Assembly (NCBI RefSeq): GCF_018977255.1
Contig: NW_024704742.1
Coordinates: 134,480,001-134,544,000, forward strand
From: Callorhinchus milii
Lineage: Eukaryota
DNA: 64,000 nt
Direction of reading: 5' to 3'
Shown here piece by piece: positions 4,043 through 60,415 of the stretch. A program made the position numbers and the translations under genes. The stretch's first letter is position 1, and each line of letters opens with the position of its first letter. Under the pieces are notes generated by a model, which worked only from the letters and a program-made list of their open reading frames with translations, was not told the DNA's origin and ran no database searches.

Positions 4043-4124
4043 CTTTTTTATAGTTTTGGTCTGAATCAACCCCAATTCTCGGTTCTCGTCAGCCACATAC
4101 AACGATAGCTTCACATAAGGATCA
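4043..4124 (-). CDS. NEDD4L: NEDD4L coding exon (exon 3 equivalent), C2 domain, 82 nt: (S)[27 protein letters not shown]
   Basis: Minus strand tttctccccAG|tgatccttatgtg...ataaaaaag|GTaagt. The YVADENREL motif is typical of NEDD4L. Absent from the ORF track; found by manual translation. Confidence 0.97.
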
Positions 4125-10573: not shown

Positions 10574-10889
10574 GGAGTCCTGTAGCTCAGTGGTTAGAGC
10601 ACTCGCTTTGCAAGTGAGAGACCTGAGTTCAATTCCAGGCAGAGGGCGAAACCTTGGGCAAGTTTCCTTACTCCACACAGAGCCTAATAATAATCCCTCC
10701 AAAAACCAAAAACAATAATAAATTGGTCTTTTTCAATCTACGACTGTTTGTGGGACACTGCTGTGCGCAATTGGCTGCCGCGTTCGCCCACAAATATACA
10801 GTCAATTCACTTTACAGTGTGTTCTGTGAAGCGCTTTGGGACGTCCTCCCGACGTGAAAAGCGCTATATCAAATGCAAGGATTATTATT
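10574..10889 (+). mobile_element. Young tRNA-Ala-derived Deu-domain SINE, full length (~315 bp)
   Basis: Head has A box TAGCTCAGTGG, anticodon arm ctcgc-tt-TGC-aa-gtgag and B box GTTCAATTCC; then Deu-like core tgctgtgcgcaattggctgccgcgtt, L2-like tail and (ATT)n. Confidence 0.92.
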
Positions 10890-11039
10890 TAGCTGTTTGG
10901 ATTATTCTGGCGCTCTAGAACGCTGCCCTGCATAAGGGGCGCTATACAAATGCAAGTTGTTGTTGTTATTGCACCTCTCTCATGTTGGTTCCCCCCCCAC
11001 CACCTCTCCCCCACCTCATCACCTATCCATATAATTTCA

Positions 11040-11722: not shown

Positions 11723-14062
11723 GATTATAATTAATCTTCCAGCTACAAATGCACAAGTTGCGTGATCTTTGAGAGAAAGTTTAGTACTCTGCCGTAATTT
11801 CTCCCACAGATTTGGGTCACATGACTGTTCTTACAATAATAATCCTTGCATTTTGATAATAATAATAACAAAAATATTCCATTTGTATAGCGCCTTTCAC
11901 GTTGGGAGGACGTCAATAATAATAGTATTAAAGTATAGTGAATGGATGGTGTATTTTTGTGGACGAAACGCAGCAGCCAATTGCGCACAGTTATGTCCCA
12001 CAAACAGTCCTGCATTGAGTGCCCAAATTATTTTTATTTATTTTGAAGGAATAATTACCCCTGGAAAAGCGATCCACCAATCGACTAACAACTGGGTTGA
12101 TACTTACTGCTAGGCAAACCGAGGCGTGTGGAGTAAGGAAACTTGCACAAGATTTCGCCCTGCTGGGAATTGAACCCACATCCTCTCACTTGCGAGTGTT
12201 TTAACCACTAAGTTACAAGACTCTCAAAAGATGGGTTGGGGGTGTGTGTGTGTCTGGAGGGGTCGAGTGGATTTTTTCAAACAGATTTGGCCACCAGCCA
12301 TCAGTTCCTGGTAAGTCTGTCCAAGAAACATGCATCTTCGAAAGTCTCAAGCGTATACATCTAGTGAGCTGATGACAAGTGGGTCTTAATGCTGAGACTT
12401 GGTATGGAAATAAGTTTGTCACAGACCTTGCAATATGTCAGAGCAGAGTTTCAGTTTGCAGTGGGTGACGTAATATGCTTTTCACCAACCACAGCTTGTG
12501 AATCAATCAAGACGATAGGGGCCTGGACAATATGCACTAAATACCTCTGGAACACGAGGGATGTCCTTTGGATGAGACTCGAAACCGAGGTCCCGTCTGC
12601 CAATTCAGGTGGACGTTAAAGCTCCCGTGGCACTATTTGAAAAGAGTGGAATTTCTCCTGGTGTCCTGGATGACAATCCCCAAGATAAAATTGGTCACTC
12701 ACTTCACCGCTTATTGTGGGTTATTGCGTAGGCAAATAGGCTGCCGAGTTCATCAACAAATCCACAGTCACTGCACTTAACAGTAATTCACGTGAAGCGC
12801 TTTGACCAATCAACAATGTGATAAGGCACGATTTGACCAGGCCAAACTCCATAGGAACATAGACACAGGAGTAGGCCATTCGGCTCCTCGAGCCTGTTCC
12901 GCCAATCTATTGGATCATGGCTGATCTGTATATCAACTTCATTAACCACCTTTATAACAATAATAATCCTTGCATTTGATATAGCACCTCATGACGTCTT
13001 TGACGCATCTCAAACCACTTCACAGAATATGTTCACTTGACAGTATATTCTGTGAAGCACCTTGCGACATCTAGAAGACATGAAAAGTGCCATATCAAAT
13101 GCAAGAATTATTATTATTTATTATAATATACAGTAAAGTTTATTGATTGTGTATTTTGTGGACGAAACGCAGCAACCAATTGCGTTCAGCAGTATCTCAT
13201 TGCTAACAATCAGGTTCCTACTTAGGTAAACAGAGGCGCGTGGAGTAAGGAAACTCGCCCAACGTTTCGCCCTGCCGGGAATCAAACCCAGCTCTCTTGC
13301 TTGCGAGGCGAGTACTCTAACCGTTGAGCTACAGGACTTCTTGATCGATAAAATAAAGGAACAGAGGTTCTTTAATCCATTAAATGTTATCCTTCCAGAA
13401 CACTCATCCTACCCATCCAGCATAGATTGCCATAGAGCATGTCTGGCGAGCTTTCCCGCTGCTTGTCCAGCTGGAATCTCCCTGCAAGTTAAGAACTTTG
13501 GCTTGCGGGGTTAACAGTAGCAACTGGAAAAATCGCTGCCTTTAGTGAAGGCTAACAAAATCACAGGGAGGATTGGATGAAGAAGGCTCTTTGGCTCATT
13601 TAATCTAATCCTTCCAGGGTACCCATTACAGCACTGAACCTGCTTCTGAAGACAAGGCCAGTGACCTGATCTCAACCACTTTGCCTGACAATTCCGCCCT
13701 TTACAATCCTGAATTTACATCCATTTGTACTGCTCCCATGGTGTGTCTGAAAGCATAGTTCTGGATTCATTTTCTCAATCTTATTTATATACATACACAC
13801 ACACACTTCAAAGCAGAGCCCCAGCCTTCTGAAACGTGTTCCTAGCTCATCAATTGGTAAATTGTCCCTTGGTTCAAGGCAGCAGCTTCCCGCTTCCAAC
13901 CATTTGAGTTGACCCACATGACACAGCTAAATTGTGTGCTTATCGGGATAAAATACAGCCACAAAATAGTCACAACATTAAGTTAATTCACTTTAATAAT
14001 AATAATCCTACATTCAATGTAGCATCTTATCACATTGTTGAGATGTCTCAAAGCGCTTCAAG

Positions 14063-22611: not shown

Positions 22612-23400
22612 AAGAACATAAGAACATAAGAATTAGGAGCAGGAGTAGGCCATTCGGCCCCTCGAGCCTGCCCCGCCATTCGATAAGATCATGGCTGATC
22701 TTCTGACCTAACTCTAATTAACTGCCCTATCCCCATATCTCCTAATCCCTCTGTTTTTTAAAAATCTATCAGTCTCAGCCTTGAAGATGTTCAAGGACTG
22801 AGCATCTACAGCCTTCTGGGGTAGTGAATTCCATAAATTCACTACCCTCTGAGTGAAGAAATGTTTCCTCAACTCTCTTCTAAAAGGCTGACCCATAATT
22901 TTAAGACTGTGACCCCTGGTCATAGCTTCTCCTACCGGGGAAACAGACCCTCAGTGTCTACTTTATCAGCCCTTTAAGAATCTTATATGTTTCAATATGA
23001 TCTCCCCTAACTCTTCTGTACTCTAGAGAATACAGCCCTAGTTTATTCAGCCTATCCTATCCTCCTAGGTCAGTCTCCTCATCCCAGGAACTAACCGAGT
23101 GAATCTACGCTGCACCCCCTCTAAGGCAAGTATTTCCTTTTTTAAATAAGGAAACCAAAACTGCACACAATACTCTCGGTGCGGTCTCACCAAGGCCCTA
23201 TACGGCCGCAGCAAGACTTCCCTACTCTTGTACTCTGAACCTTGTGCAATGAACGCTAACATGCCGTTCGCCTTCTTAGTTGCTGCTGCACCTGCAAACT
23301 AACTTTTTGAGACTGGTGTACAAGGACACCCAAATCCCTCTGAACATTAACACTATCTAATCTCTCCCCTCTAGAAAATAATCTGTTTTTCTATATTTTC
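22612..23400 (-). mobile_element. CR1 LINE 3' end
   Basis: ORFs YRALVRPHREYCVQFW...LEGVQRRFTRLVPG and TRGHSLK...HFFTQRVVNLWNSLP; (ttcttatg)n terminal repeat. Confidence 0.92.
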
Positions 23401-30920: not shown

Positions 30921-32956
30921 ATACTTTACTGCATTTATCTGCCCAGATGTCATCCATACATTATTTAAGATAACAACAATGACAAGAGTGGATAAAATCC
31001 AGGTTTCGCCACACACAAAGTCCTTACTCCCTAATCAATCGCTCCCATTTCATTAACACAATCTGCAAAAAAAATATTGATTGTAGCTGAAGGCTGACGT
31101 AAGATCTATTGACCCCCAAGAGCTCACTGAAACACTGAGACCTGAAGCAAAGACAGGGCAGAGAGATGATGTTGGGAATAGGGGGTGTGTGGTGGGAAAG
31201 GGAAAGAGAGAGAAAATATAAAGTAGGCTAGCAGCTGCTGAGCAGAGGGAACAACCAACAACAACTTGCATTTATATAGAGCCCCTCACGTGGAGCAGCA
31301 TCTTAGGAGCGTTTAACAGTGGCTGAGCAGAGGGGAGGGAGGTGACCGTAAGCACGGTCGAAGAGGAAGGTTTCGTGATCTAAAGAAGGGGGCAAGGCTG
31401 AGGGATTGAGGGGGAGAAACTGGCAAAGATTTGGAGCGTGGAGTGGCAGGACGTTTCAGGAGCAAAGCTGTGGGAACACCTGAACAAGAGCACGAAGATC
31501 TCCTGAATTCGATCTGTTGGGGGATATTGTGGAGCCCAGAAAAGGGCATTGTGAACATGGGTCAGTAGCCGGCAAGCATAAGCATGGAGTGTTCAAGCGG
31601 TGTTTCTTGTTGGGGCGGGGGGGTGTGGGAGGGGAGATTAATAATAATAATCCTTACATTTGCCTTATCTCAAAGCACTTCACAGAACATACTGTGAAGT
31701 GAATTGACTGTATTTTGGGGGCGAAACACACCAGCCAATTGTGCACAGCAGTGTCCCACAGACAGTCATGGATTAACTAAATTATTATTATTATTATTTT
31801 TNGAAGGAATTATTACCCCTGAAAGAGCGATCTGCCAATGGCTAATAACTGTGTACCTACTTTCTGCTAGGTAAACGGAGGCATGTGGAGTAAAGAAACT
31901 TGCCCAATGTTTCGCCCTGCCGCGAATTGAATCCAGGTGTCTCGCTTGCGAGGCGAGTGCTTCAACCACTGAGCTACAGGACTATAAGATAAGATGGTGC
32001 CAGTGTAGCGAGAGGCTGGTGATGCCAACCTGCAGGGGAGTGTGAAGGGGAAGCTTTGTGGCTGGGAGCAATGTGGGAAGACCAAGAGAGGGAGGTGGTG
32101 GGATTCATGTAGTCAATATAGCCAAGTGTAGAGTTAAAATTGATCTTCTATAAAGCTGTACTGTTGTTTTAAATGAAACACACAACTATCATCCAAGCTT
32201 CCTGTGGCCTGACAAGCTTCCCACTGCTTGTCCGGTTAGCATTGTCTTCTCCAAGTGGGAAGACTCCTTGCCCTCGAAGAGAAATGACACTGCAATCGAT
32301 TTGGAGTCCAAAATCTTTTCAATTTAGGTGTCACACTCGAAAAATGCAAGCGTAATGACAATGCGGACAGAAACATGAGAATGTGAGAGAGGAAAGAAAA
32401 GGAAGTCTGAACACTATTCAGACTCAAGTCTCCATTTAACAGCAAACTTCTCTGTACCAGGGAATGTATTTTGCAAGCCAAAGATTCCTGACATTTTTTC
32501 TGCCAAAAGCTAAAATGTCAAACGGAGGTCAAAGTTCTACCTCACAGTGCTCAGCTACGCCAAGGGAACCAATGCTAAAAAACACAACATAAAAACGCCC
32601 TCAGAAATACAGCAAGAGACGGACCTGTAGGAAGTATTTCAGTTAGTGATGGCCAACCCCTGGCCCGACAAACATTCGCCCTAGTTAGGTACGTCCATGT
32701 TCAATCAATAGTGTGTTTCCATTATTTTCTTGATTGAATATTTCTCGATTTATAGCACAAATCAAGAAATATTCAATCAAGAACTTTTGTCGGACGACCA
32801 AAAAGGATCGCCATCACTGATCCAGGTAAAACGTACACAACGTTCGAGGACGAAGTTGGATTCATCGATTCCTACAACTGATGTGGCTCGGTTTCAGATG
32901 GCAATAGAAAGCTCTTAAAAGTCTTACTCCGCAGAGTCCCTGCCAATGGTACGTAC

Positions 32957-33030
32957 CTGGCTCCAAAGATGTCCTTCCTCGCCAGATCAATGCCTGAAAT
33001 GACCTTGACTCGGAGAATACGGGATTCTTC
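32957..33030 (-). CDS. NEDD4L: NEDD4L coding exon (equivalent of human exon 2), start of C2 domain, 74 nt: [24 protein letters not shown](S)
   Basis: Minus strand reads ctcctttcAG|gaagaatcccgt...ggagccag|GTacgt. The peptide closely matches the recalled NEDD4L sequence [25 protein letters not shown] and fits NEDD4 less well. Phase 0 start, phase 2 end, in frame with 4043-4124. Confidence 0.96.
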
Positions 33031-36169: not shown

Positions 36170-39161
36170 CATTAGCTGCCGCAACTGACCCGAGCTGCTT
36201 CCCCAATATGTTCCCGAACCATCCCCTTCCCACCACTATTCCCTCCACTATTCCTGCTCAACCCTCCTCTCCCTCCGCCTGCCCCGACTCCTATCCGTCC
36301 TCGACTCCCCCACGGCCTCCCTCTGCTCCTCCTTTCACGTTCTCCGTTGTGCCCACAGTGGCAGATGCCGTCGGCTGTCCTACAGCACCTACCCTGACTG
36401 CCCCTTTCCCCACTCTCGCCACAAGACCCACCAGCCCTCACCCACTGAAGCCAACCTTTCCTCCCTCGCTCACATCCCCATCCAACCCATCTGCCCACCC
36501 CCTCCCACCCCTCATCTCCCCCACACTCCCACTACTAACTGTTGCCTCCGCATCGGTCTGCAGACCGTCCGCTCATTAACTAACAAGTCCCTCACAATCC
36601 ATGACTTCACCGTCAAGGAAAATATCGACATCCTCGTCCTCACCGAAAGCTGGGTCACCCCAGGCGACACCTTTCTCACTAGTTGAGGCCACACTTCCAG
36701 GTTACACCTTTCACCAAACCCCACTGCCTAATCGCCGTGGCGCTGGTGTGGCTCTCATCTCCCAGTCCCCTCTCGGCCTTTCCCCTTACTCCTCCAGAAC
36801 CTTCTCCTCCTTTGAACACCTTACCTTCTACCATCCCTCCAGGCTCTCCCTCAAAATCCTCCTTGTCTACCATCCCCAAGCCTTCCCCTACCTTCCTTTT
36901 GGACATCTCCACCCTCCTATCTTCCCTCTCCTTCTGTTCTGAACGCCTCCTAATCCTAGGCGACTTCAACCTCCACTTCACCCTCTCCTGCTCTACCTCT
37001 GCCGACTTCTCCTCCTCACTGTCTCGGGCATCACCATCATCGATAAAGCCATCTCGGACCACCACTTCATCTCCCTCAACACTTCCGTATCCATTCCCCT
37101 TTCTCAATCCTCCACCATCACATATCATCCGTGGAAAATGTTTTCCTCCCTCTCCCCTGCCCTGGAGTCATCTGAACTCCTACACCTCTGGCCCTCCCTG
37201 ACCGATCTCCCATCCTCACTCTCTTTTCTCCACAACTCCCTCTCCTTCATTCTAAACTCCCTTGTCCCCCCACACCTCCCAAACTGCCTCATACTGTCGT
37301 AAATCCCCCTGGTACACCAGCCATCTCCGTTCCCTCAAGGCATAAGTGCGAGCTGCCGAACGCGACTGGTCCAAATCCAAACTAACGGTTCATCAGCAGA
37401 TCTGGCTTCACGACTCCAAGACCTACCGCTGTGCTCTTGCCTCTGCCAAATCCTCCTTCTACGCCAAGGTTATCTTGGAGGCGAAGGACAACCCCCGGCT
37501 TCTCTTTTCCACCACAAACCGTCTCCTCCATCCACCTTACCACGCCTCACCCATCCTCAAACTCCAACTGTGAGGAGATGCTGGATTTCCTCAAAACCTC
37601 TGTCCCGTCCACAGCCACTCCCACATTACCTCTCCCTCATGACCCACCACCCACCCATACTCCTTCGACCCTATCGCTCCCTCCTCCCACTCCGCGATTG
37701 TTTACAAGCTCAAACCCACCAGCTGCTCCCTCGATCCCATCCCCACCTTTCTGCTCGTCTCCCAGCTCCACCTTCTGGCCCCACTCCTGCCCGATGTCAT
37801 CAACCACTCCCTGTCCACCAGTTCAGTTCCCACCCCCTAAAAACAGCTTTCATCACCCCCATCCTGAAAAAACCTTCCCTGGATCCATCCCTCCTCTCCA
37901 GCTACTGCCCCATCTCTAACCTCCCATTCCTCTCCAAGGTCCTGGAACGAGTCGTCGCGTCCCAGCTCCAATCATTTCTCTCTCGTTATTCCCTCTTTGA
38001 ACCCCTCCAATCCGGCTTCCGCGTGACCCACAGTACGGAAACAGCTCTGGTCAAAGTCACTAATGACATTCTGATCATCTGTGATCAGGGCTCCCTCTGC
38101 TTCCTTGTCCTCCTCGACCTCTCTGCCGTCTTCGACACTTTCGACCACTCCATCCTCATACACCGCCTCTCCGCTTTACTCAATCTTTAATATCTACATG
38201 CTCCCCCTTGGTGACATCATCCGCAGACATGGGGTCAACTGCGGATGACACCCAACTCTATCTTTCTGCCTCAACTCCAGGACCACTGCTGTCCTGACAG
38301 ACTGCCTGTCAGAAATCAAGTCTTGGATGAGGGCAAACTTCCTACAGCTGAATGTGAACAAGACTGAGGCCCTCCTTATTGGCTCGCGCCAACGCCTCTG
38401 CACCTCAGGCTCTGGCAACATCAACCTCCATTGTTGCACACTTCAACTCACCGCCAGTCAGGAACCTCGGTGTCTTGTTCGACCCTCAAGTGTCTTTTCT
38501 TCCCCACATTCAAGCCATGACTCGCACTGCCTTCCCTCACCTCTGCAACATCACCCGACTCCGCCACTACCTCACCCCTCAGGCCACTGAAACTCTTGTT
38601 CACCTCCAGGCTCGACTATGCAAACGCCCTGCTTGTCGGCCTTCCCAACTCCTCCCTCCACAAGCTGCAGATAATCCAGAACTCTGCAGCCCGTGTCCTC
38701 TCCCGCACCAAACTCCGTGACCCCATCACCCCATTCTCGCCCGACTCTACTGGCTCCCTATCCTTCAGAGGATCCAGTTCAAAATCCTGGTCCTCACCTA
38801 CAAAGCCCTCAATGGTCTCGTCCCACCCTACCTCTGTGACCTACTAACACCCTACCAACCCGCCCGCTCCCACAACTCAGCTGGCTCCGACCTGCTCCAC
38901 ATCCCCCGACCCACCCGGCACCACTCTGCCACCAATCTCTGGAACTCCATCCCCCAATCAATCAGCCTCGCTCCCTCCTTAGCCTCCTTCAAGTTCCCCC
39001 TCAAAACCTTCCTCTTCAACCATGCCATTGGTCACCCCCCCTTCCCCTCCCTTCTCCCCCTGACCCCAGCTCGGGTCTGAAATGCTGTACACCGTCCAGC
39101 GCCTTGGGACATCCTCCCGATGTGAAAGGCGCTATACAAATGTAGTCTTGTTATTGTTGTT
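36170..39161 (+). mobile_element. Near-full-length decayed L2 LINE (APE endonuclease plus RT pseudogene)
   Basis: APE motifs (VRSLTNK...DILVLTESW, RRGAGVA, LILGDFN, SDH) at 36560-37070; RT ITPILKK...[14 protein letters not shown]...QSGFR...[10 protein letters not shown] at 37850-38190; C-terminal region, stem-loop and (GTT)n tail. Many frameshifts, and a deletion removes the GVPQGS motif. 5' boundary uncertain. Confidence 0.92.
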
Positions 39162-40429: not shown

Positions 40430-40758
40430 GGAGTCCTGAAGCTCAGTGGTTAGAGCACTCGCTTTGACAAGCGAGAGACCTGAGTTCAATTCCAGGCAGA
40501 GGGCGAAACCTTGGGCAAGTTTCCTTACTCCACACAGAGCCTAATAATAATCCCTACAAAACCAAAAACAATAATAAATTGGTCATTTTCAATCTACGAC
40601 TGTTTGTCTGACATTGCTGTGCGCAATTGGCTGCCGCGTTTGCCCACAAATATACAGTCAATTCACTTTACAGTGTGTTCTGTGAAGTGCTTTGGGACGT
40701 CCTCTCGACGTGAAAAGCGCTATATCAAATGCAAGGATTATTATTATTATTATTGTTG
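40430..40758 (+). mobile_element. Young tRNA-Ala Deu-SINE inserted in the (GTT) tail of an L2
   Basis: Full consensus directly after ...tgctgttgt; tgttgt recurs after the (ATT)n tail. Confidence 0.9.
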
Positions 40759-41150: not shown

Positions 41151-41330
41151 ACAGAAGTCGCTGGGAACACTCAACAGGTCAAGCAGTATCTATGGAGAGA
41201 GGGAAGTGAGTTAACGTTGCAGGTGGATGACCTTTCATCAGAACTTTAGCCAGTTCTGACGAAAGTTCGACCTGAAATGTTAAGTCACTTTCCTCTCTCC
41301 ATAGATGCTGCCTGACCTGCTGAGTTCCCA
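41151..41330. mobile_element. Palindromic Penelope-like non-autonomous element with hammerhead-like motifs
   Basis: Two ~80-nt inverted arms around 41245; CTGA(C/T)GA...G(A/C)AA motif in each arm. Confidence 0.72.
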
Positions 41331-42110
41331 AGCGTCTTGAGGTGAGTCTTGAGGTGGTGAGGGAGGGGGATGAGGTGGAGGGACAGTAGGATGGAGTTCC
41401 AGAGGGTGGAGGCACAGTGGCAGAAGGCGCTCCCGCCAATAGTGGGGCGAGCAAGGAAGGTGGGGGACGTGAAGCAGACACTACGAGTTCAAAGTGCCGA
41501 TGTGCGGCTTATACCCACCACCTTCTGATTCCGAGACGAAAATGCAAATGAAATGAAGTGATTTCCATTTTATTTACAGATGAGGCAACAGGGATTTCCT
41601 GCTTCAGCTGCATGTCCCCCATTCCCTGTTCTGGTCTGCCAATGTTTCAACCTTTACTACAGTTCTCACGTTAAACATTAAACACTGCAAAAAGCAGCGT
41701 CCAATATTTACTTTGGGATTGTATAAGCTGTAACAGCACCAGCATGGTACGTCCATAAGATCCTTACACACTTACAATCTCACGTATTTATTGTTATGGT
41801 CATTTGTGGGACATTGCTGTGTGTAAATTAGCTGCAGAGTTCACCCAAAAACAGTCACCACAATATATACCCGACGTGAAAGGCCCCATTACCAAATAGT
41901 AAAAGGATTATTAATATTAATAATAATCGTTGTATTTGAGATGTCTCAAAGCGCTTCACAGAATATACTGTAAAGTGGATTGACTGTGTATTTTTTGTGC
42001 AAAACGCAGCAGCCAATTGTTGACAACAATGTCCTACAAACAGCCGTGACCTTAGTGATCAAATTATTAGATTCCTAAAGTAAACAGGTGTATAATAATA
42101 ATATTATATC

Positions 42111-44730: not shown

Positions 44731-46587
44731 CTCTTAAGCCAAGCCAAGTGGCTGGAAGGGGCGCAAAGGTGACCTTGTGACAACTCACCCTCTGATATCT
44801 ATCCATTTCCTTTAGAAAGGGGTTAAGCCTCGGTTTCCTGCAACCCCATAGAATTATTTAGTTCAGTATTGGAATGAGAGGGGAGAAAAAGAGAGAGGAA
44901 AAGAGGGGCGTGATCTACGTTGTTGCATCACTGCATTGCCAAATGAACCCCCTGACTATGCAGGGAACATCTGACCTAGACAACAATCTGGTCTCCAAAA
45001 ACATTTTATTCACGCTTTTCTCGCGCCATCCCCACTCCTCTATTCAGCAGAAGTCAAAGCAGCAAGTTCTCAGAGTGAATGAATAATCCACATGGAGGAG
45101 ATCTAATTCCTTCAACAAATAATAGTAATAAATTGACTAAATAATTCAATCTATGACTGTGCAACACTGCTGCGCGCAATTGCTGCTGCGTTTCGCCCAC
45201 AAAATATAGTCAATTCACTTAATAGTACTTTAGAACAGTACTTTAACACTTTGTTTCAGATTTACAGTATCTGCAGTATTTTGCATTTTGTCACTTAACA
45301 GTATATTCCGTGAAGCGTTTTGAGACATCTAGAAGACGTGTTAAGCCGTTATATCAAATGCAAGGATTATTAGGATTATTTGCCTCCTTCAAGGCGTGTC
45401 TCAAAAGATTCCTTTATGACCACGGCTTCGGTCAACTAACCTCCTCTCCATCCTTCTCTCATCCCAACTCCCAGCTCGGGTACAAACCCTTTATTGTCCA
45501 GCACCTTGGGACGTCCTCCCAATGTAAAATATAAGTTACTATATAAATGCAATTTGCTACTGTGGTTGATGAGTGGCCACACCAGCCCTTCATCTTGTGG
45601 TTACCACTCGACACAACCAAAGCCTCTTGGTCAGAAGGTCACCTCAAACATGCGGCAATCTAAAGCCAATAAATACATAACTTAGCGTAAAGATTCCGGC
45701 TTGGAATTGTACCCGTGGTAATGGAGAGGGAAAGGGGTTAGCAGCACCAGACTTTGCCAACGTTAAATAAATAATCTAAGACACGGAGTCAAGAAAAAAA
45801 AGTTAATTGCTGCATTCTCCAGGGAGGTATCGCATGCATCTCAGTAAGTTTGCTCTGATCTAGGTATTTCCAATGAGACAGCAATGGCATTGAAAAAGCA
45901 TCAGTTTGCAGCTGGCAAAGCGGGTGTGGGGGGTTGTGTGGGCGGAGGCTTTTCACTCTCATTATCTCAATAGTTGTCTGTGGGACGTCGTTCACAAAAA
46001 TAGTTCTTGTACTTTTGCCTGTGTGACTCCAACACTCAGCTTGGCTCAATACTCAACACTCTCTCCTCCGAGTCAGATGATTGTGGGATCAAGCCCCATG
46101 TCAGGGCTTTAAGCTTACGGCCTAGACTGATATTATAATGCAGTGCGAGGGGTGGGGGGGGTTGTGGGGGTGAGAGCAGGAGGAAGCACTGCGGCATGTG
46201 GTGGGGGATGTGAGGAAGAAGCACTACATTAGAAAGAAAACAATCTCCCATAAAATCGTTCATTCGTTTTATGGCTATTTATGGGACACTGCTGAGTGCA
46301 AATTTGCTGCCGCATTCGCCCTCAAAAATACACCGTAACTGCATTTTACAGTGCTTTGGAACATCTTCCCAATGTGAAAGGCCAAATGTAAGGATTAATA
46401 ATAATAATAATTCTTGCATTTGCATAACGCTTATCACGTCGTTGAGACGTGACAAACCGTTTCACGGAATATACTGCAAAGTGAATTTACTGTAAATTTT
46501 CTGGGATATACAAATAAAAAATGCTGCTGTTGATGTGTATACTTTGTGTAGCCCTGTGCCAAATTTACAGGGGTTTTAAACAGTCAG

Positions 46588-46834
46588 CAAAACGCAAAAT
46601 ACTGCAGGTGCTGGAAATCTGAAAACAAAAACAGAAGTGGCTGGGAACACTCAGCAGGTCAGGCAACATCTTTGGAGAAAGGAAAGTGAGTCAACGTTTC
46701 GGATCGACGACTCTTCGTCAGAGCCCAATCTGTTCTGACGGGTTGCGGACCCGAATAGTTGACTCACTTTCCTTTCTCGAAAGATGTTGCCTGACCCGCT
46801 GAGTGTTCCCAGCGACTTCTGTTTTTGTTTTCAG
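46588..46834. mobile_element. Palindromic Penelope-like element with an intact hammerhead core on the minus strand
   Basis: ~100-nt inverted arms (46619-46722 and 46733-46834); minus strand reads CTGACGA-agagtcgtcgatcc-GAAACGTT. Confidence 0.78.
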
Positions 46835-47207
46835 TCCCACGTGAGGTTGGGTAGTGCCTTTGTTCCCAACAGAAAGTCATGGGGTAGGTGGGGCGGGGGG
46901 TGGGTAAGAGACCCACATTGTGTGCAGCAAACCAAACAGTAGCACAGCAACAGGAGATTGTAATTCAGGTATCACTTCATGAATTAAGATATCACCAAGT
47001 TCAGTATCACTTTTACCAAAGGCTGCAGGGGGGCAAACAGCACGAGCGCAGGGATTGAGAACCCTTGCCATATATTTATGTTCTGACAATAAATAAAAGG
47101 GAGGTTCAAAAAAAACAAGATGGTGGTGGGATATGGATTGCTTTGACACATTGTTGAGGACTCAACTAATAGTATAATAATTATTGCTTTTCATAATGCG
47201 CCTGTGA

Positions 47208-47512
47208 CAGGGCTCACAGTCTTAAAATTAAGGGTCAGCCTTTTAGAACAGAGTTGAGGAAACATTTCTTCACTCAGAGGGTAGTGAATTTATGGAATTC
47301 ACTGCCCCAGAAGGCTGTAGATGCTCAGTCCTTGAACATCTTCAAGGCTGAGACTGATAGATTTTTAAAAAAACAGAAGATTAGGGGATATGGGGATAGG
47401 GCAGGTAATTAGAGTTAGGTCTGAAGATCAGCCATGACCTTATCGAATGGCGGGGCACAGGCTCGAGGGGCCAAATGGCCTACTCCTGCTCCCAATTCTT
47501 ACGTTCTTATGC
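47208..47512 (+). mobile_element. CR1 LINE 3' end
   Basis: Near-identical reverse complement of 22620-22915. Confidence 0.92.
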
Positions 47513-49243
47513 TATCGAGAGGTCTGAAAAGCGATTCACAGGATATATTGTAACGTATAAAATGGGCAAAATATGTTTGCCCACGTATATTGTTTGTGGG
47601 CAAACACCACAGCCAATTTGAGCACAGCAATGTCCCAGAATTAGATAGATTATCCACAACGAGTTAGCTACAGGGATATGGTGAAACGGCAGGTCAATGG
47701 AACTGAAAGGAATGTTTGTTAAAAGAGCACAAACACAATGGGCCGAATGATCATCTTCTGTGCTGCTAACTTCTAATGTTCAGTTTCTGTAACGTCCACT
47801 TTTCAATCTCATTTTGGAAAATGCTTCAAGACATTTCTTTCCAGGTTAAAGGGACTGCATGTTTAAATGTATAAATATATATATATATATATAAATGAGC
47901 TAAAAAGGCTGAGCTAAACATATTCTTTCTGTAACATATTCTTTAACAGTTGCTGAAAGACGTCAAGCCTGAAATTCCTCAAGCCTCAGCTGCAGCTCGA
48001 ATCTCGAAAAGCTCACTCTTAAATTAGAAACTGCTTCTGAAGACGAAATGCAGGAAAGCAGACGTCAGTTAAGACTCATTGTTGTTTCATTGTTGATTTT
48101 TTTTATTACAAGTTTTTTTTAAAAAAAAATAAGATTTGAGGTACAGATCAACCATGATCCTAATAGACTGCGGAACAGGTTGATCTGTACCTCAAACCTT
48201 AATTTTTTTAAAAAAAAAACTTATGACACCCTTAAGGCTCAGGTTGTGAAGCTTTTTGCAATCTATGATCCCTTTCACTCAATCTTAGAAGAACTGCAGT
48301 CATAACAACAGCAGCAACAACAATTTGCATTTATATAGCACACTTCACGCAGGGTAGCGTCCCGGAGCACTTCCTCCCGTTAGACAGAGGGACAAAGTCA
48401 TCTTTCCCTTCACCTCCCTTGAAACTCACAGTCTAAATGAGGTACTTGTGGGCATTAAGCATCTCACTGCACCATTCGAAAAGAGAACTGATTTTCTCCC
48501 AGTGTCCTGGCCTACAATCTCCCAAATAAAAATGGGTTCAAACATGCGGCTTGAACCCACAATCCTCTGACTCAGAGTAAAGAGTGACTTAACCAAGCTG
48601 ACACCTTGCCCCGCAACTTCATGCTGCCTCAGGTAATATGCAATTAATATTCTTGCACAATCTGGGTTGAAATTTTCACTAACTATGGCTGTTTTGGGAC
48701 GCAACTGACTGCCATGTTCGCCCACAAATTACAGTGACTCCACTTTACAGAATATTTTGTGAAGTGCTTTAGAACTTCCGCCTGACATGAAAACACTAGA
48801 CCAAATGTAAGGATTGTTATTAGTATTAGTGCATTTATCATTGAACTGTCTCAAGCGCTTCAAAGGATTTCACTGTCGAGTGCAGTGTTTGTATTTAAAG
48901 GTTTACATCTCAGGTTGTATAATCGTCTCAAGTCAAGACCGTTCGATGAAAAGCGATTGAAATTTTTAAAGCAACTCTGCCCCTTCCCCAACCAAGTCAA
49001 ATATTAAGGCAATATTGTGAACTGTAGTGGGGAGAGGGGAAAGAGAAAAATTATAGGAAAGAAAAATTGAAGCATCTGAGTAATCAGTATGTTGATGAGA
49101 TATTTATATTCGGGAGACAAAAAATGCAGAGGCAGCAATGTCCTCAGGCAGTAATTGCGTAAATTCACACACACACACATAATACCCAAAATAATTCTTA
49201 CATTTGATATAGTGCCTCATTACATTGTCAACATGTCTCAAGG

Positions 49244-51212: not shown

Positions 51213-52360
51213 TTCAACAACATCAACTCACACTTACATAGCGCGCGCGCACGCACACCTCCACCCCAAGCAGGGTAGCGTCTCAGAGCACTTAACAATG
51301 GCAGAGCCTGACTCCGAGCCAAGAGGGGGGAGGGGAGGTGGCCGTAAGCTCGGTCGAAGAGGAAGATTTTCAGGCGATGCTTGAAAAAGGGGAGAGAGGG
51401 GGGAAGGCGGAAGGATTGAGGGAGAGTGTTCCAGAGTTTTAGTGTGTAGCGACTGAAAGCACGACCTCCGATGGTAGGACAGAGAATGCAAGGGACAAGT
51501 AGGAGGCCGGAGCCAGTCGAGCAGAGGCAGAGCAGATGTGGTGGATTGGGGAGTGAGGAGGTCGGAGAGGTAGGGAGGTGCCAGGGAGTGAATGGATTTG
51601 AACATGACTGCGAATGGAGCTTGGCCAGAACTGGCGAGATGTGGGTCAGTATGCGGGCGGCAGAGTTCTGAATGAGCTGCATCTTTGGAATGGTGGGGAG
51701 ACCAGCGAGGAGTGTGCTTGAGTAATCCAAGCGGGAGGTGAGAAACATCATGAGAGTTTCGGCTTCATTTGGGATAAGGTATGGTCGGAGGCAGGCAATG
51801 TGGCGGAAGTGGAGGAAGGCGGTCCTGGTCAGGGGCCGGATGTGGGAGAGGAAGGACTGCTGGGGGTCGAACCAGACTCCTAGATTGCGCACTGGTTCGG
51901 TGAGTCTGAGGGAGATCCCAGGGAGGTTGAGGACTTTAGATCCGCAGGAGTGAAGGCACTGATGGGAGCCAATGAGTATGGCTTCCGTCTTGTCCATATT
52001 CAGCTACAGGAAGTTTACACTCATCCAGGCCCCTGATGTCTGCCAGACAAGCTGATAGAACATCGGCAGGTCTGGAGTTGGTGCTGGAGGAGGCAAAGTA
52101 GATTTGTGTGTCATCTGCATACATGTGGAAGTTTACTCCGTGTCTGCGGATGACATCGCCCAGTGGGTGCATGTAGGTAAGGGAAAGACGAGGGCCAAGG
52201 ATGAAGCCCTGGGACTTGAACCATGGGAGTGCGGTCCCACTAAGGTGGATGAGGGAGAGGCGGTGGAGGAGAATGGCGTGTTCGACTGTGTCGAATGCAG
52301 CAGAGAGATCCAGAAGGAGGAGGAGGCAGAGGGAGCCCTGGTCACAGATAGAGAATGTGT
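51213..52360 (-). mobile_element. L2 LINE RT/3' portion, decayed
   Basis: PLGDVIRRHGVNFHMYADDTQIY (ORF 51936..52172) and KTEAILIG...VRNLGVWFD...LWNTLP (ORF 51161..51997). Confidence 0.92.
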
Positions 52361-53280
52361 TTTGTGACTTTCATTTCATGTCCACCCACCCACCATTATA
52401 CCATCAGCGGGCAGGCTATTAGCCTCTCTACCCCCACTCTCTGGAACTTCATCCTTCTGACTCATTCCTTCCCTCACCTCACGGAGTTACTTAATTCAAG
52501 GTCCACCCCAAGACCTACCTCCTTAACTTAATTTTCAGTCATCTTTCCCCTCCCCCTCAGCTCCAACCTCTCGGCTCCAACCTCCCCACGCTCAGGTGCC
52601 AAGCCATTTTTGTTAAGCACCTTTGCACATCCACGAGACGTAAACAGAGCTATATTTGTATCGTATGGTTCTGAGTTTGGACTCCCAGGTGCTCTAGACA
52701 AAAATAACTTCTGCACCTCATCCAAAATTAAACAGCAGTGCTCTCAGAATAACTTTATTTCGGCGTTTCTCTCAAAGTGGATGCAACAGAGTGAGGCATT
52801 GACCTACTTCGCCTCCAATGGCTAACAGCGCGGATCACAAGTTTGGAAGACAAAACGGATCTGCCGGCTAGAGTAGCAGCAGTTAACATTAAAGGGGTGA
52901 AAAGTCATCAACAATACGTGCAAGAATAACTGAGTGTGTGAGGGAGACAGAGAGAGAGAAAGGGGGAGAAAAAGACTTAAGTACAATAAATCAAAATAAC
53001 AACATGCATTTTTTTATAGCGACTCAAAATGTCTCAAAACGTCCTTCGGATGAGAGGTGAGATAACATTCAAGGAATATTATTATTAGTAGTAGTATTTT
53101 TATTAGTAGTAGTATTCTTATTACTATTATTAATCATATATTTTTAAAAAATTGTTATTTTAGATTATTATTATACAGTTTTTCCTTTCACTGGCAATTT
53201 TATCTGGAGGTTTGTGAAGTTCCCTTCACTTTTTGAATGGTGCCGCGGGAATCTTTAACTCCACATGGGAACAAAGTGCT

Positions 53281-53502
53281 AAATATTGCAGATGCTGGAA
53301 ATCTGAAACAAAAACGGAGGTCGCTGGGAACACTCAGCAGGTCAGGCAGCATCTATGGAGAAAGGAAAGCGAGTCAACGTTTTCAGTCCACGACCCTTCG
53401 TCATGCTCTGACGAGAAGGGGCGCGGCCCCCAAATGTTGACTCACTCCCTTTTCTCCGTAGATGCTGCCTGACCTGCTGAGTGTTCCCAGCGACTTCTGT
53501 TT
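53281..53502. mobile_element. Palindromic Penelope-like element with degenerate hammerhead motifs
   Basis: Inverted arms centred near 53405; same consensus as 46588-46834. Confidence 0.75.
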
Positions 53503-56500
53503 CTCTTATGAGAACAAAGTTACCACGTTAAGTGGAAAGCTTCACAAGGATGGCTCTGCTAGATACACACTGGGAGGGTCATTGACAAGACATAGAACAA
53601 CTAAAATATGCCCAAGAACTGAGAAGTAACAATAACAACACTGTAATAACAGGTAATTCAAGAGGAGAGCAGTGAGGCTCAGCCCCAGAACAAAAGGAAT
53701 GAGATGTACAAAACTACAAGACACAAGTTTAACCCACAAAATAATAAAAATTATTACAAAATAACAAAGGGGGTAATAATCCCTTTTAAAAAAAAGTGGT
53801 CACACATGCACAACTGTTTGTGGGATACTGCTGTGTGCAATTGGCTGCCACACCTCACCCATAAAATATACAGTTAATTCATTTTACAGTATATTCTGAC
53901 CGCTCGGCGCCTTGGGACGTCCTTTTAACGTGAAAGGCGCTATACAAATGTAATTTGTTGTTGTTGTTGAGAGGACCCAGGTTAAATTCCTGGGCAGGGT
54001 GAAACCTTAGTCCACACACGTGTGTTTACTTAGCAGTAAGTAGGAACCCGGTCGTTAGTCGATTGGTGGATCGGTTTCCTGTTCCCTTAAAAAATCATAA
54101 TAATTGGTCCTTCAATCCACGACTGTTTGTAGGACGCAGCTGTGTGCAATCGGCTGCCACGTTTCACTCACAAAATATACAGTCAATTCACTTTACAGTA
54201 TATTCTGTGAAGCGCTTTGAGACGTTTTGATGACCTGATAAGATGCTATATTAAATGCAAGGATTATTATTAATGTCCTCCTTTTTGTAAGGAGTCTTAA
54301 TATTGACCCAGGTGAGCAAAGTACCTTTTCACCTTAGGGGCTCGAGTTCAATATCAAGGAGATTCCCAGCTGGCTCAAGAGAATGTGCACAACCCGAGGT
54401 CAGCATGGCACAAAATTACTGTGAACGCAACGTCATGAAAACTGCTGTCGCAAATTCAGGCAACGAGATTAAAGAGACAGATTAGCGCTTGGAATTACAG
54501 CGCACACATTTCGCTATGTATTTTCCCAGAGCTGTCGGTGGGAGGGGGGGCAATATTCAAACAGAATTTGCAAAACTAAAGCGATTTTATTACTATCGAC
54601 TTTGATCCCCAAAAATACTTGAAGCGTTAATTGCACCTCTCATTATCCACAACAAGGATTTTAATGTACGCTCCAACGATGAGTCTTGGGAGTTACTCAG
54701 GGGTTCAAAGTGTGTCGGGTACGATGAAGCCGTACTGAACAAATTTCCGAGACAGAAGCATTTCTGTGGTTCCAGGCTGCTGGAAAAACTACTGGTCAAT
54801 CAATTGGTATCTGACCCAATTCTCCTATACTTCACAAATTGGGACTCAACAAGCCAGCTCACATGATTCTTACTGAACACGGGAAAGTGGTGGAGGGGAA
54901 ACTAAAACAACAACTTGCATTTATATAAATAACTCCCTTCTTGTGGGAAAAGCGTCTCTGAGCGCTTCACAGAATTTCCTGTGAAGTAGAGCGACTTTGA
55001 AGACGAATGTGGCAGCAAATTTTTACACAGTAAATGTGATCTGGAGGATTGGTGGCCAGGACTGGGAGAATCCCTTCTGTTAGAGAAGTGCCATGGGATC
55101 TTTAACATGCAGGAATACAGGACCTCAATTTATTGTCTTGTCAAAAGATGTTGGCTCCAATGATATGGTACTCTCGGATTTTTATGTTCCTCTTGTTCAG
55201 CGCAAGCCCTTCAGAACACCCTCAAGGGCAGCCTTACGTACAGTAATCCTTTGGACTCCACCACTAATTGGACCTGACAAGTTGGCTTTCCAAACTTAAA
55301 AAATGCCCAACTTCCAGGACAACCGTTCACCATCAAAGACATTTCCTGTGCATCGATTGTGTCGATGTCAATTCCTAGTTGCTGTTCATCTTTGTACCCT
55401 AAGCATCGGAAGTGCAAATGACATGAGTGAGGAAGCAACAATCCAGAAGCCGGCCATTTTTGTTCAAAGCTCACTCGTTTACGGAACCAGAGTTATAATG
55501 AGTTGGTCTGGATTAAAGGGTTTGAGGAGCGAGCAGCGGAGTGGGATTATAACCATTATTCTATCTTTGCATTTAACAACGCAAACGTCAGACGGTACAG
55601 AGCACTTCATAGGGGATCGCTATTAGTGACATGAAAGTCTGACTATTTTCCTAGTTGAAAAGCTCACTTAAGTGGAGACCCATAATGTAGCGGTTAATGC
55701 ACTCGCCTCGCAAGGGAGAGGACTCGGGTTCGATTCCCAGGTGGGGTGAATCCTTAAGCAAGTTTCCTTACTCCACATGCCTCTGATTACTCAGCAGTAA
55801 GTAGGAACCTGGTTGTTAGTCAATCCGCGGAGCACTTTCCAGGGGTAATAATCCCTCAAAAAAAATTGGGGTCTAACCAAAATGTTACAGGACTCCACAA
55901 GTGCTCAGTCCATTGATCCCAATTTAAATAAGAAGCAAAGCCGTCCCCTTAATGATGTGGTTGTAGTCAACAGTTTGCACAGAAAACCACAATGAAGTGC
56001 GATGAAGCAACAGCACAAACGAAGGGATGTCAATGGAAACTTAATTTCGACAACAAAATATGCAGTCAATTCACTTTACAGTAGATTTTGTGAAGCACTT
56101 TGACATGTCTCACAGACTCGATAAGGCACTATATCAAATGCAAGGATTATTATTATTAATAATTCTTGCATTTGATTCACTGCCTCATAACATCAGAGGC
56201 ATCTCAAAGTGCCTCACAAGAAAGCCACAGTGACTGTAGATTTTGTAGGCAAAGGCAACTGCACAGCAATGTCCCTTGAACAGCCATGAAGTGAACTGAA
56301 TTATCAATTTTTACGTGAGGGTAGGGGAAGGGGCTTCTCCATTACAACTGTTGGTCAGTTTTATGACTTGAATTTTGTCTTGTTTAAGATGAGGAGGGGG
56401 CACGGCAAAGGGATTGAGGCAGAGAACTATTTTGCGGCATAATGGCTGAAGGCCCCCAAAAGGACCTGGGAGAAGTGTATTAATTTTTTTTTAAAAAAAG

Positions 56501-56629
56501 GCAAAATACTACAAATGCTGTAAATTTGGTATAAACACAGAAGTCACTGGGAACACGCAGCAGGTCAGGCAGCATCCATGAAGAGAGGAAAGTGAGTTAA
56601 TGTTTCAGGTCAATGACCTTTCGTCAGAA
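56501..56629 (-). mobile_element. Single arm of the Penelope-like element with a hammerhead core
   Basis: Minus strand CTGACGA-a-AGGTC-att-GACCT-GAAACATT-aactc. Confidence 0.72.
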
Positions 56630-60096: not shown

Positions 60097-60415
60097 GAGT
60101 CCTGTAGCTCAGTGGTTAGAGAACTCGCTTTGTAAGCGAGAGACCTGAGTTCAATTCCAGGCACAGGGCGAAACCTTGGGCAAGTTTCCTTACTCCACAC
60201 AGAGCCTAATAATAATCCCTGCAAAACCAAAAACAATAATAAATTGGTCATCTTCAATCCACAACTGTTTGTGGGACATTGCTTTGCGCAATTGGCTGCC
60301 GCGTTCGCCCACAAATATACAATCAATTCACTTTACAGTCTATTCTGTGAAGCGCTTCGGGACGTCCTCCCGACGTGAAAAGCGCTATATCAAATGCAAG
60401 GATTATTATTATTAT
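60097..60415 (+). mobile_element. Young tRNA-Ala Deu-SINE, full length
   Basis: Consensus head, core and tail. Confidence 0.92.

Follow-up and report, generated by a model that had tools for sequence, protein, structure and literature searches.

Probable decayed end-pieces of a Penelope-like element carrying a minimal hammerhead motif in the NEDD4L locus

The window, which is the whole stretch of 64,000 nucleotides of Callorhinchus milii DNA that was analyzed, was found to contain what are probably dead pseudo-LTR (pLTR) end-pieces of a Penelope-like element (PLE) that bear the known minimal hammerhead. These copies are very probably old, neutrally decaying insertions of stump size, each taken from the pLTR end of the element, and the copies in the window would not be expected to cut. 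We infer membership in the PLEs from the motif, the tail and the inversion taken together; published PLE biology is also our basis for holding that the copies come from a PLE, that reverse transcription has two start sites, that its template is uncleaved and that the parent motif is active. Published work already covers minimal hammerheads at the ends of PLEs as well as inverted pLTRs and their tails. A literature search returned no paper on this particular repeat family, which probably already has an entry in repeat databases.

Copies of the element and their hammerhead motifs in the window

Comparison of four regions against the window by blastn identified three head-to-head palindromes (copies A, B, and C), a single arm (D), and a scrap of tail sequence (E), with no further match better than E 0.01 (Table 1). 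These are the four copies and the scrap listed by a sequence-only reading of this DNA; all were recovered, with the ends revised to 41338 for A, 53272 for C, 56494 for D, and 45291 for E. Thus, the inverted head-to-head arrangement is present in three of the four copies that bear a hammerhead. In each palindrome the left arm holds the hammerhead sense on the minus strand and the right arm on the plus strand, with the 5′ ends meeting centrally, the opposite-strand arms lying about 4 to 14 nt apart, and the center differing among A, B, and C. The arms are 95 to 135 nt in length. A tail was detected at one end only, of 31 bp in B and about 34 to 40 bp in C; it is also present in D and is absent on both arms of A. 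The seven arms separate into two subfamilies, (i) A and D (AGGUC/GACCU, AACU) and (ii) B and C (GGGUC/GACCC, GACU), with both arms of each palindrome belonging to the same one. Copy B was predicted to fold as one long stem (−163.7 kcal/mol, z = −19.3), and none of 200 shuffled sequences was as stable. Head-to-tail tandem copies, the arrangement by which retrozymes are defined, were absent within the window by blastn.

Table 1. Positions of the element copies, their arms and hammerhead cores, and the NEDD4L coding exons in the window
Feature	Positions	Strand	Remarks
Third NEDD4L coding exon	near 1366-1328	minus	
Next NEDD4L coding exon	4043-4123	minus	2nsq_A, E 2.2e-11; NEDD4, E 0.24
NEDD4L coding exon, nearest found	32957-33030	minus	start of C2 domain; 2nsq_A, E 2.9e-08; NEDD4, 8.3e-05
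Copy A, palindrome	41151-41338		blastn
Copy A, left arm	41151-41245	minus	AGGUC/GACCU subfamily; tailless
Copy A, left core	41213-41241	minus	4-bp helix I; A13>C
Copy A, right arm	41250-41338	plus	
Copy A, right core	41256-41281	plus	core letters kept; deletion in helix II; 15.2 C>U
Scrap E	45250-45291	plus	42 bp; tail end only, without hammerhead; blastn
Copy B, palindrome	46588-46834		blastn
Copy B, tail	46588-46618	minus	one-sided 31-bp 3′ extension; inverted match spans 46619-46834 only
Copy B, left arm	46619-46722	minus	GGGUC/GACCC subfamily; hammerhead sense
Copy B, left core	46693-46721	minus	11 core letters and ACGU kept
Copy B, right arm	46724-46834	plus	inverted; tailless
Copy B, right core	46735-46760	plus	3-nt loss including A9; changes at 15.1/15.2
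Copy C, candidate target-site duplication, left	53265-53277	plus	12/13 identical to 53508-53520
Copy C, palindrome	53272-53502		blastn
Copy C, left arm	53272-53404	minus	with tail
Copy C, left core region	53376-53404	minus	truncated at C3; G12 changed
Copy C, right arm	53405-53502	plus	tailless
Copy C, right core	53408-53438	plus	2-nt insertion; G12>C; 15.2 C>U
Copy C, candidate target-site duplication, right	53508-53520	plus	
Copy D, single arm with tail	56494-56629	minus	blastn
Copy D, core	56599-56627	minus	all core letters; perfect helix II

A minimal-hammerhead descriptor was run at three stringencies and compared with 20 shuffles of the window. The strict form matched once (shuffle mean 0.0), within the copy family; allowing one mismatch in helix II gave three matches, all in the family (shuffle mean 0.25, maximum 1); and additionally allowing one core mismatch gave six, four of them in the family (shuffle mean 3.65). 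A search of the window against Rfam up to E = 10 returned no hammerhead match. When the arms were examined one by one, all 11 core letters were found to be intact in three of seven (A-right, B-left, and D) and the ACGU in three (A-left, B-left, and C-left), while a 4-bp helix I was kept in A-left alone, the arm with the A13>C change, and was lost in the other six. Positions 9 and 10.1 have the extra nucleotide between them. No arm in the window retains every feature of the motif, such that the arm formula of the sequence-only reading, AGTT-CTGA..GAAACGTT-AACT, describes a core family that is real in a form that is idealized. Similarly, the two cores it had singled out as best preserved, those of B-left and D, were correctly placed in coordinates, strand and core letters, yet both are damaged: B-left has two private changes (46703 and 46712) that leave one mismatch and one wobble in helix II, and has lost the 5′ strand of helix I at the junction with only 1 bp left, while D has ACAU in place of ACGU at helix III and a helix I of 2 bp.

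The family majority and the decay of the window copies

Part of the stretch was present in 20 of the 24 sequencing runs listed. All contigs of four runs, two from one organism and one from each of two others, were aligned on positions 46540 to 46880 at 80% likeness. Contigs matching the region of copy B numbered 9,307, 3,231, 13,721, and 16,785 per run, and these are counts of pieces rather than of copies; the family is plainly very abundant and common to the three organisms. The sample is skewed to B-like copies, and the majority sequence derived from it describes the B type and not the A/D subfamily. Weighted by depth, this majority reverts the private changes of copy B, at 46703 in 89 to 97% and at 46712 in 85 to 99%, to give a helix II of five perfect base pairs (GGGUC/GACCC) closed by G10.1-C11.1. 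Neither U17 nor any of the 11 core positions had a listed variant of at least 10% in the four runs. Positions 15.2-16.2 of the majority form a palindromic CG, with CpG decay of 8 to 12% on each strand; C7>U at 15 to 20% exceeds G8>A, which stays under 10%, but this asymmetry is no more than a hint, because the baseline CpG decay of about 10% lies at the threshold for listing. Behind position 46722 the contigs have loose ends (76 to 468 contigs per run) that start with ACTGGG in three of the four runs; these letters complete helix I at 4 bp, the pair adjoining the cleavage site being U-G. The family majority is therefore a complete minimal type I hammerhead, with intact core, 5-bp helix II, self-complementary ACGU and 4-bp helix I, which bears out the earlier identification of the motif as the minimal hammerhead of PLE pLTRs. 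The GUU cleavage triplet and the U-G wobble that starts the B-type helix I are both suboptimal. Beyond the roughly six letters that they share, the loose ends agree overall at 0.38 to 0.42, and a faint common extension of about 14 letters was seen in their consensus across the four runs; some copies may continue into the body of the element. The outer end is sharp, with many contigs stopping at 46588/46589 in all four runs and flanks that are A/T-rich. Steps in depth were left out of this mapping of ends, since the private changes of copy B clip alignments near 46700. Opposite-strand joints at 46721/46722 were detected in two runs, at one to two contigs each.

The sequence-only reading had named better conservation of the core than of its flanks as a test, and this was not found in the window: letters matching the majority amounted to 69 of 77 in the core versus 350 of 377 in the downstream flank. 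About two to three of the core mismatches stem from a misalignment of B-right, and the result is unchanged by them. In the reads, variants at the level of subfamilies fell on none of 11 core versus 8 of 101 downstream positions, numbers too few for significance. Set beside the complete majority motif, these proportions indicate that the motif of the parent was complete and that the inserted copies have decayed neutrally, with no selection on the motif. Helix II was paired in 88.6% of cells across the seven arms and showed two double changes, one at the level of the subfamilies (A-U vs G-C) and one private to C-right; the three A/D-type arms have A10.1-U11.1 instead of G-C. The covariation score was matched by 5 of 500 shuffles, a level that relatedness alone can yield among seven related arms. 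The private change in C-right (U-A to G-C, 53418-53430) may be a product of DNA repair templated on the hairpin of a quasi-palindrome, and not of selection.

Penelope-like signatures and the proposed making of the stumps

The assignment to the PLEs draws on the motif, on the inverted arrangement and on the one-sided tail, which the sequence-only reading had not mentioned; the 31-bp length of this tail at one end, together with the inversion, strengthens the call. The link to reverse transcriptase (RT) and GIY-YIG reading frames that the same reading had proposed as a check was not found. Of the 162 open reading frames of at least 80 aa in the window, the 150 compared with Pfam included no GIY-YIG match and two RVT_1 matches, both away from the copies (37303-38187 and 51939-52370), which we take to be L2/CR1-type LINEs. 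Peptides from two arms had no homologue among longer proteins in a weak test with 41-aa queries that were partly flank, and pattern scans of viral and metagenome contigs, collections poor in animal DNA, gave no match. Of two scans of genome contigs, one gave no match and the other three, which were rejected as chance matches of 21 to 27 nt; the GC-rich bacterial records that contain them show no other part of the element. Read onward from the core, the frame meets a stop after about 19 codons, and a 1-nt length polymorphism at 46622 (20 to 36% of depth) interrupts a later frame that opens with ATG. A candidate target-site duplication was detected at one of the four copies, C, with a score equalled by about 1% of 2000 random pairs.

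Minimal hammerheads (min-HHR) were defined in metazoan PLE pLTRs by Cervera and De la Pena (2014; PMC4209133), who count thousands per genome, most of them solitary, in fish and frog, and describe opposite-strand pairs 100 to 700 bp apart in Schistosoma, and motifs that are inactive as monomers and of low activity as dimers. All four traits distinguished in that work were seen here, including (i) covariation between subfamilies, (ii) the extra nucleotide after A9, between 9 and 10.1, (iii) G10.1-C11.1, and (iv) the palindromic 15.2-16.2; the core, the short helix I and the abundance are also shared. Unlike the min-HHR, the present family has a helix II of 5 bp rather than the 7 to 8 bp of the Schistosoma families, the triplet GUU, and opposite-strand pairs separated by about 4 to 14 nt. 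No cartilaginous fish is named in the consulted parts of that paper, and no shark in two of its supplementary files. With regard to the tail, Arkhipova et al. (2013; PMC3846280) describe a 31-bp tail that is optional on one of two inverted pLTRs (Pen2a_Av) and report head-to-head as the commonest inversion, and Craig et al. (2021; PMC8557442) give a PLE tail of 30 to 40 bp, often at one end. The window copies resemble these EN+ PLE insertions in head-to-head inversion, the 31-bp tail at one end and, at copy C, a candidate for the optional short target duplication, and differ from them in being without an ORF body, the whole insert consisting of two stumps. A preprint on non-LTR retrozymes (bioRxiv 10.64898/2026.07.22.740005) considers that hammerhead repeats lacking an ORF derive from PLEs, and one chondrichthyan is among its cases; our copies are likewise small, ORF-less and hammerhead-bearing and probably derive from PLE pLTRs, whereas retrozymes are defined by head-to-tail tandem arrays and the copies here are inverted pairs and single arms. 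A further comparison is with the Anolis Poseidon PLE PAc (Frangieh et al. 2024; PMC11167929). In PAc, it is reported, two internal RT start sites bound the tail, and the element cuts and extends both strands of its target at A/T-rich DNA; the template is mainly uncleaved RNA, the hammerhead cutting only when protein is present, and the ORF starts at stem II with the main RT start 111 to 118 nt into it. In the window the two end points lie 95 and 126 nt from helix II, near that PAc distance; as in PAc, the hammerhead stands upstream, by about 100 to 130 nt, of two end points separated by the length of a tail, the uncleaved motif is retained and the flanks are A/T-rich. Unlike PAc, where the ORF begins at stem II, the frame from the core is the short one noted above.

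The stops of all seven arms fall in the span from about 7 nt upstream of C3 to U4, and no arm begins at the cleavage site, a pattern unlike the scattered truncation of LINEs. This stop at the 5′ edge of the core suggests that the arms are run-off copies of an uncleaved template RNA whose own 5′ end would lie at helix I. Each arm would accordingly be a cDNA of 95 to 135 nt made from the element RNA, with reverse transcription starting at either of two sites about 31 nt apart, to yield arms with or without the tail, and passing through the uncleaved hammerhead to end at its 5′ edge. Two such copies placed head-to-head at one target site would form a palindrome, and priming twice, once on each strand of the target, would produce just the orientation observed. 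The hammerhead of the source element probably cuts slowly after GUU, either as a dimer or with the help of protein. Identity between the two arms of a palindrome (83 to 84%) was no higher than that of left arms to arms of the same subfamily elsewhere (85 to 86%; right arms, which are more decayed, 78 to 87%), and, taken with the differing centers, this fits palindromes that are assembled as they insert, and not ones formed beforehand or homogenized afterwards. We tentatively extend this proposal, in a form we regard as possible but short of probable, to the stumps being a mass in vivo record of PLE integration, in which transcripts start at the 5′ strand of helix I, priming occurs in the 5′ pLTR on uncleaved RNA at both nicked strands and at an outer and an inner site, and the cDNAs are joined anew at each insertion. 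The majority CCAGUUC fits the initiator-type YYANWYY, a weak and common motif. For junctions of this kind Arkhipova et al. (PMC3846280) favor self-priming on an antisense template, with which the window data are also compatible.

Rival readings, the NEDD4L intron and the use of the stumps

The window is vertebrate intronic DNA of 44.7% GC, rich in tRNA-derived repeats and LINE fragments. Two of the three NEDD4L coding exons were compared with solved structures and both fit NEDD4L better than NEDD4; the exon matches confirm the earlier placement of the gene on the minus strand. The copies lie 8 to 24 kb upstream of the first coding exon detected, which begins at a splice acceptor, and an upstream exon must therefore exist; neither an upstream first exon nor a CpG island was seen in the 32 to 64 kb part of the window. 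A strand bias was considered and rejected, as three of four tail-bearing ends are in the NEDD4L sense and this is not significant. In the hammerhead sense each arm has two stretches resembling splice acceptors (in B-left, 46670-46685 and 46619-46635, minus strand; mirrored in the other arms), comprising a pyrimidine run followed by TAG directly before ATG, as in the majority, and a pyrimidine run followed by CAG; the tailless arm of B ends exactly at the second acceptor-like AG. PLE pLTRs often contain introns, and the NEDD4L intron could acquire cryptic acceptors through the copies in sense orientation.

Other repeats are also present. An unrelated 106-bp imperfect palindrome (48113-48218, 82%) is bounded on either side by T/A runs and lacks a hammerhead core, with a 45-bp relative at 12893-12936; a 57-bp single-copy palindrome (32727-32783, 88%) lies about 170 bp into the intron that follows NEDD4L exon 32957-33030; and a young 250-bp repeat occurs in two copies of opposite orientation that are 95.6% identical (22669-22918 and 47208-47457). 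A dense tRNA-derived SINE family contributes about 20 tRNA-like heads (e.g., 10576-10894, 40469-40750, and 60098-60415) and includes close inverted pairs, such as 10590-10880/11050-11340 at 94%; as a potential source of intronic double-stranded RNA this family outweighs the hammerhead palindromes. A weak Pfam match to SCA7 (32239-32517, minus strand, E 0.004, below the cut-off) is probably chance, and one N is found at 31802.

The reading closest to the one preferred is that of a true non-autonomous family, mini-PLE or SINE-like, in which the unit transcribed alone and mobilized in trans by PLE protein would be either a preformed palindrome or a master element some 140 nt long; it differs from the best explanation in the source RNA alone. 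The sequence-only reading had taken the copies for such a non-autonomous family. The ends of all seven arms within about 7 nt of the core, the poor agreement of the loose ends after their first letters, the thousands of matching contigs and the published existence of non-autonomous elements derived from pLTRs are all in keeping with it. A preformed palindromic master is unlikely, as the centers differ among the three palindromes and single arms exist; the faint extension common to the four runs speaks against a short master, and an autonomous PLE that primes in the 5′ pLTR yields the same short product in vitro (PMC11167929). We consider this origin doubtful though deserving of serious weight. 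Far less probable is a MITE with long inverted repeats in which the likeness to a hammerhead is chance or a captured relic: the palindromes are about 200 to 250 bp, high in copy number and in one case (C) flanked by a candidate duplication, and palindromic DNA-class repeats of such size have been described in frog, but the one-sided tail, the single arms, the unequal outer ends and the differing centers are not traits of MITEs, the majority motif is complete far beyond chance, and symmetric terminal inverted repeats with a fixed duplication were not seen, the duplication being confined to one of four copies.

With regard to function, cleavage of the NEDD4L pre-mRNA in cis, by single copies or by dimers of sense arms, would draw on the four of seven arms that lie in the NEDD4L sense and on the core letters kept by B-left and D. 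Against it, no arm is complete, the sense arms are 3 to 15 kb apart, and the core shows no excess of conservation; even intact minimal motifs are inactive as monomers and weak as dimers (PMC4209133). In full context the predicted pair probabilities of helices I and II were 0.00 for the sense arms A-left, B-left, and C-left, because the partner arm pairs with the motif, while D reached 0.5 to 0.6 for helix II and 0.00 for helix I and has no ACGU. With all arms damaged, the core no better conserved and the motif sequestered by the partner arm, the fold predictions make cutting of the NEDD4L pre-mRNA very unlikely, and as an explanation of the copies we find it hardly credible. The strand relevance that the sequence-only reading had drawn for NEDD4L is not supported, since the palindromes hold both orientations by construction. 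A reading compatible with the preferred one, and one that we hold to be a fair minority possibility, is that the cell sees the hairpin, with double-stranded pre-mRNA stems of about 100 bp serving as substrates for ADAR or the small-RNA machinery. Copy B forms one long stem, palindromic repeats in frog are reported to be heavily edited, many editing sites are reported in elephant shark, and by analogy with the palindromic frog repeat the long hairpins could plausibly be edited as well; the hairpins may be a large source of intronic double-stranded RNA. Sub-threshold matches of copies A, B, and C to miRNA families in Rfam would point the same way, but they fall far below the gathering scores and reflect hairpin shape only, and identity of the palindromes with any miRNA family was rejected.

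Seen as a ribozyme, the family is one further lineage in a class that was described in 2014; its value is modest and mechanistic. It is not yet settled by what route PLEs acquire their inverted ends and one-sided tails, and thousands of two-arm stumps with a sharp 5′ end are good test material that can be had from genome data alone. If the stumps are indeed a record of integration, the choice between twin priming, with a sense template, and the published self-priming, with an antisense one, could be decided from these thousands of loci, and hammerhead cleavage would be shown not to be part of making the inserts.
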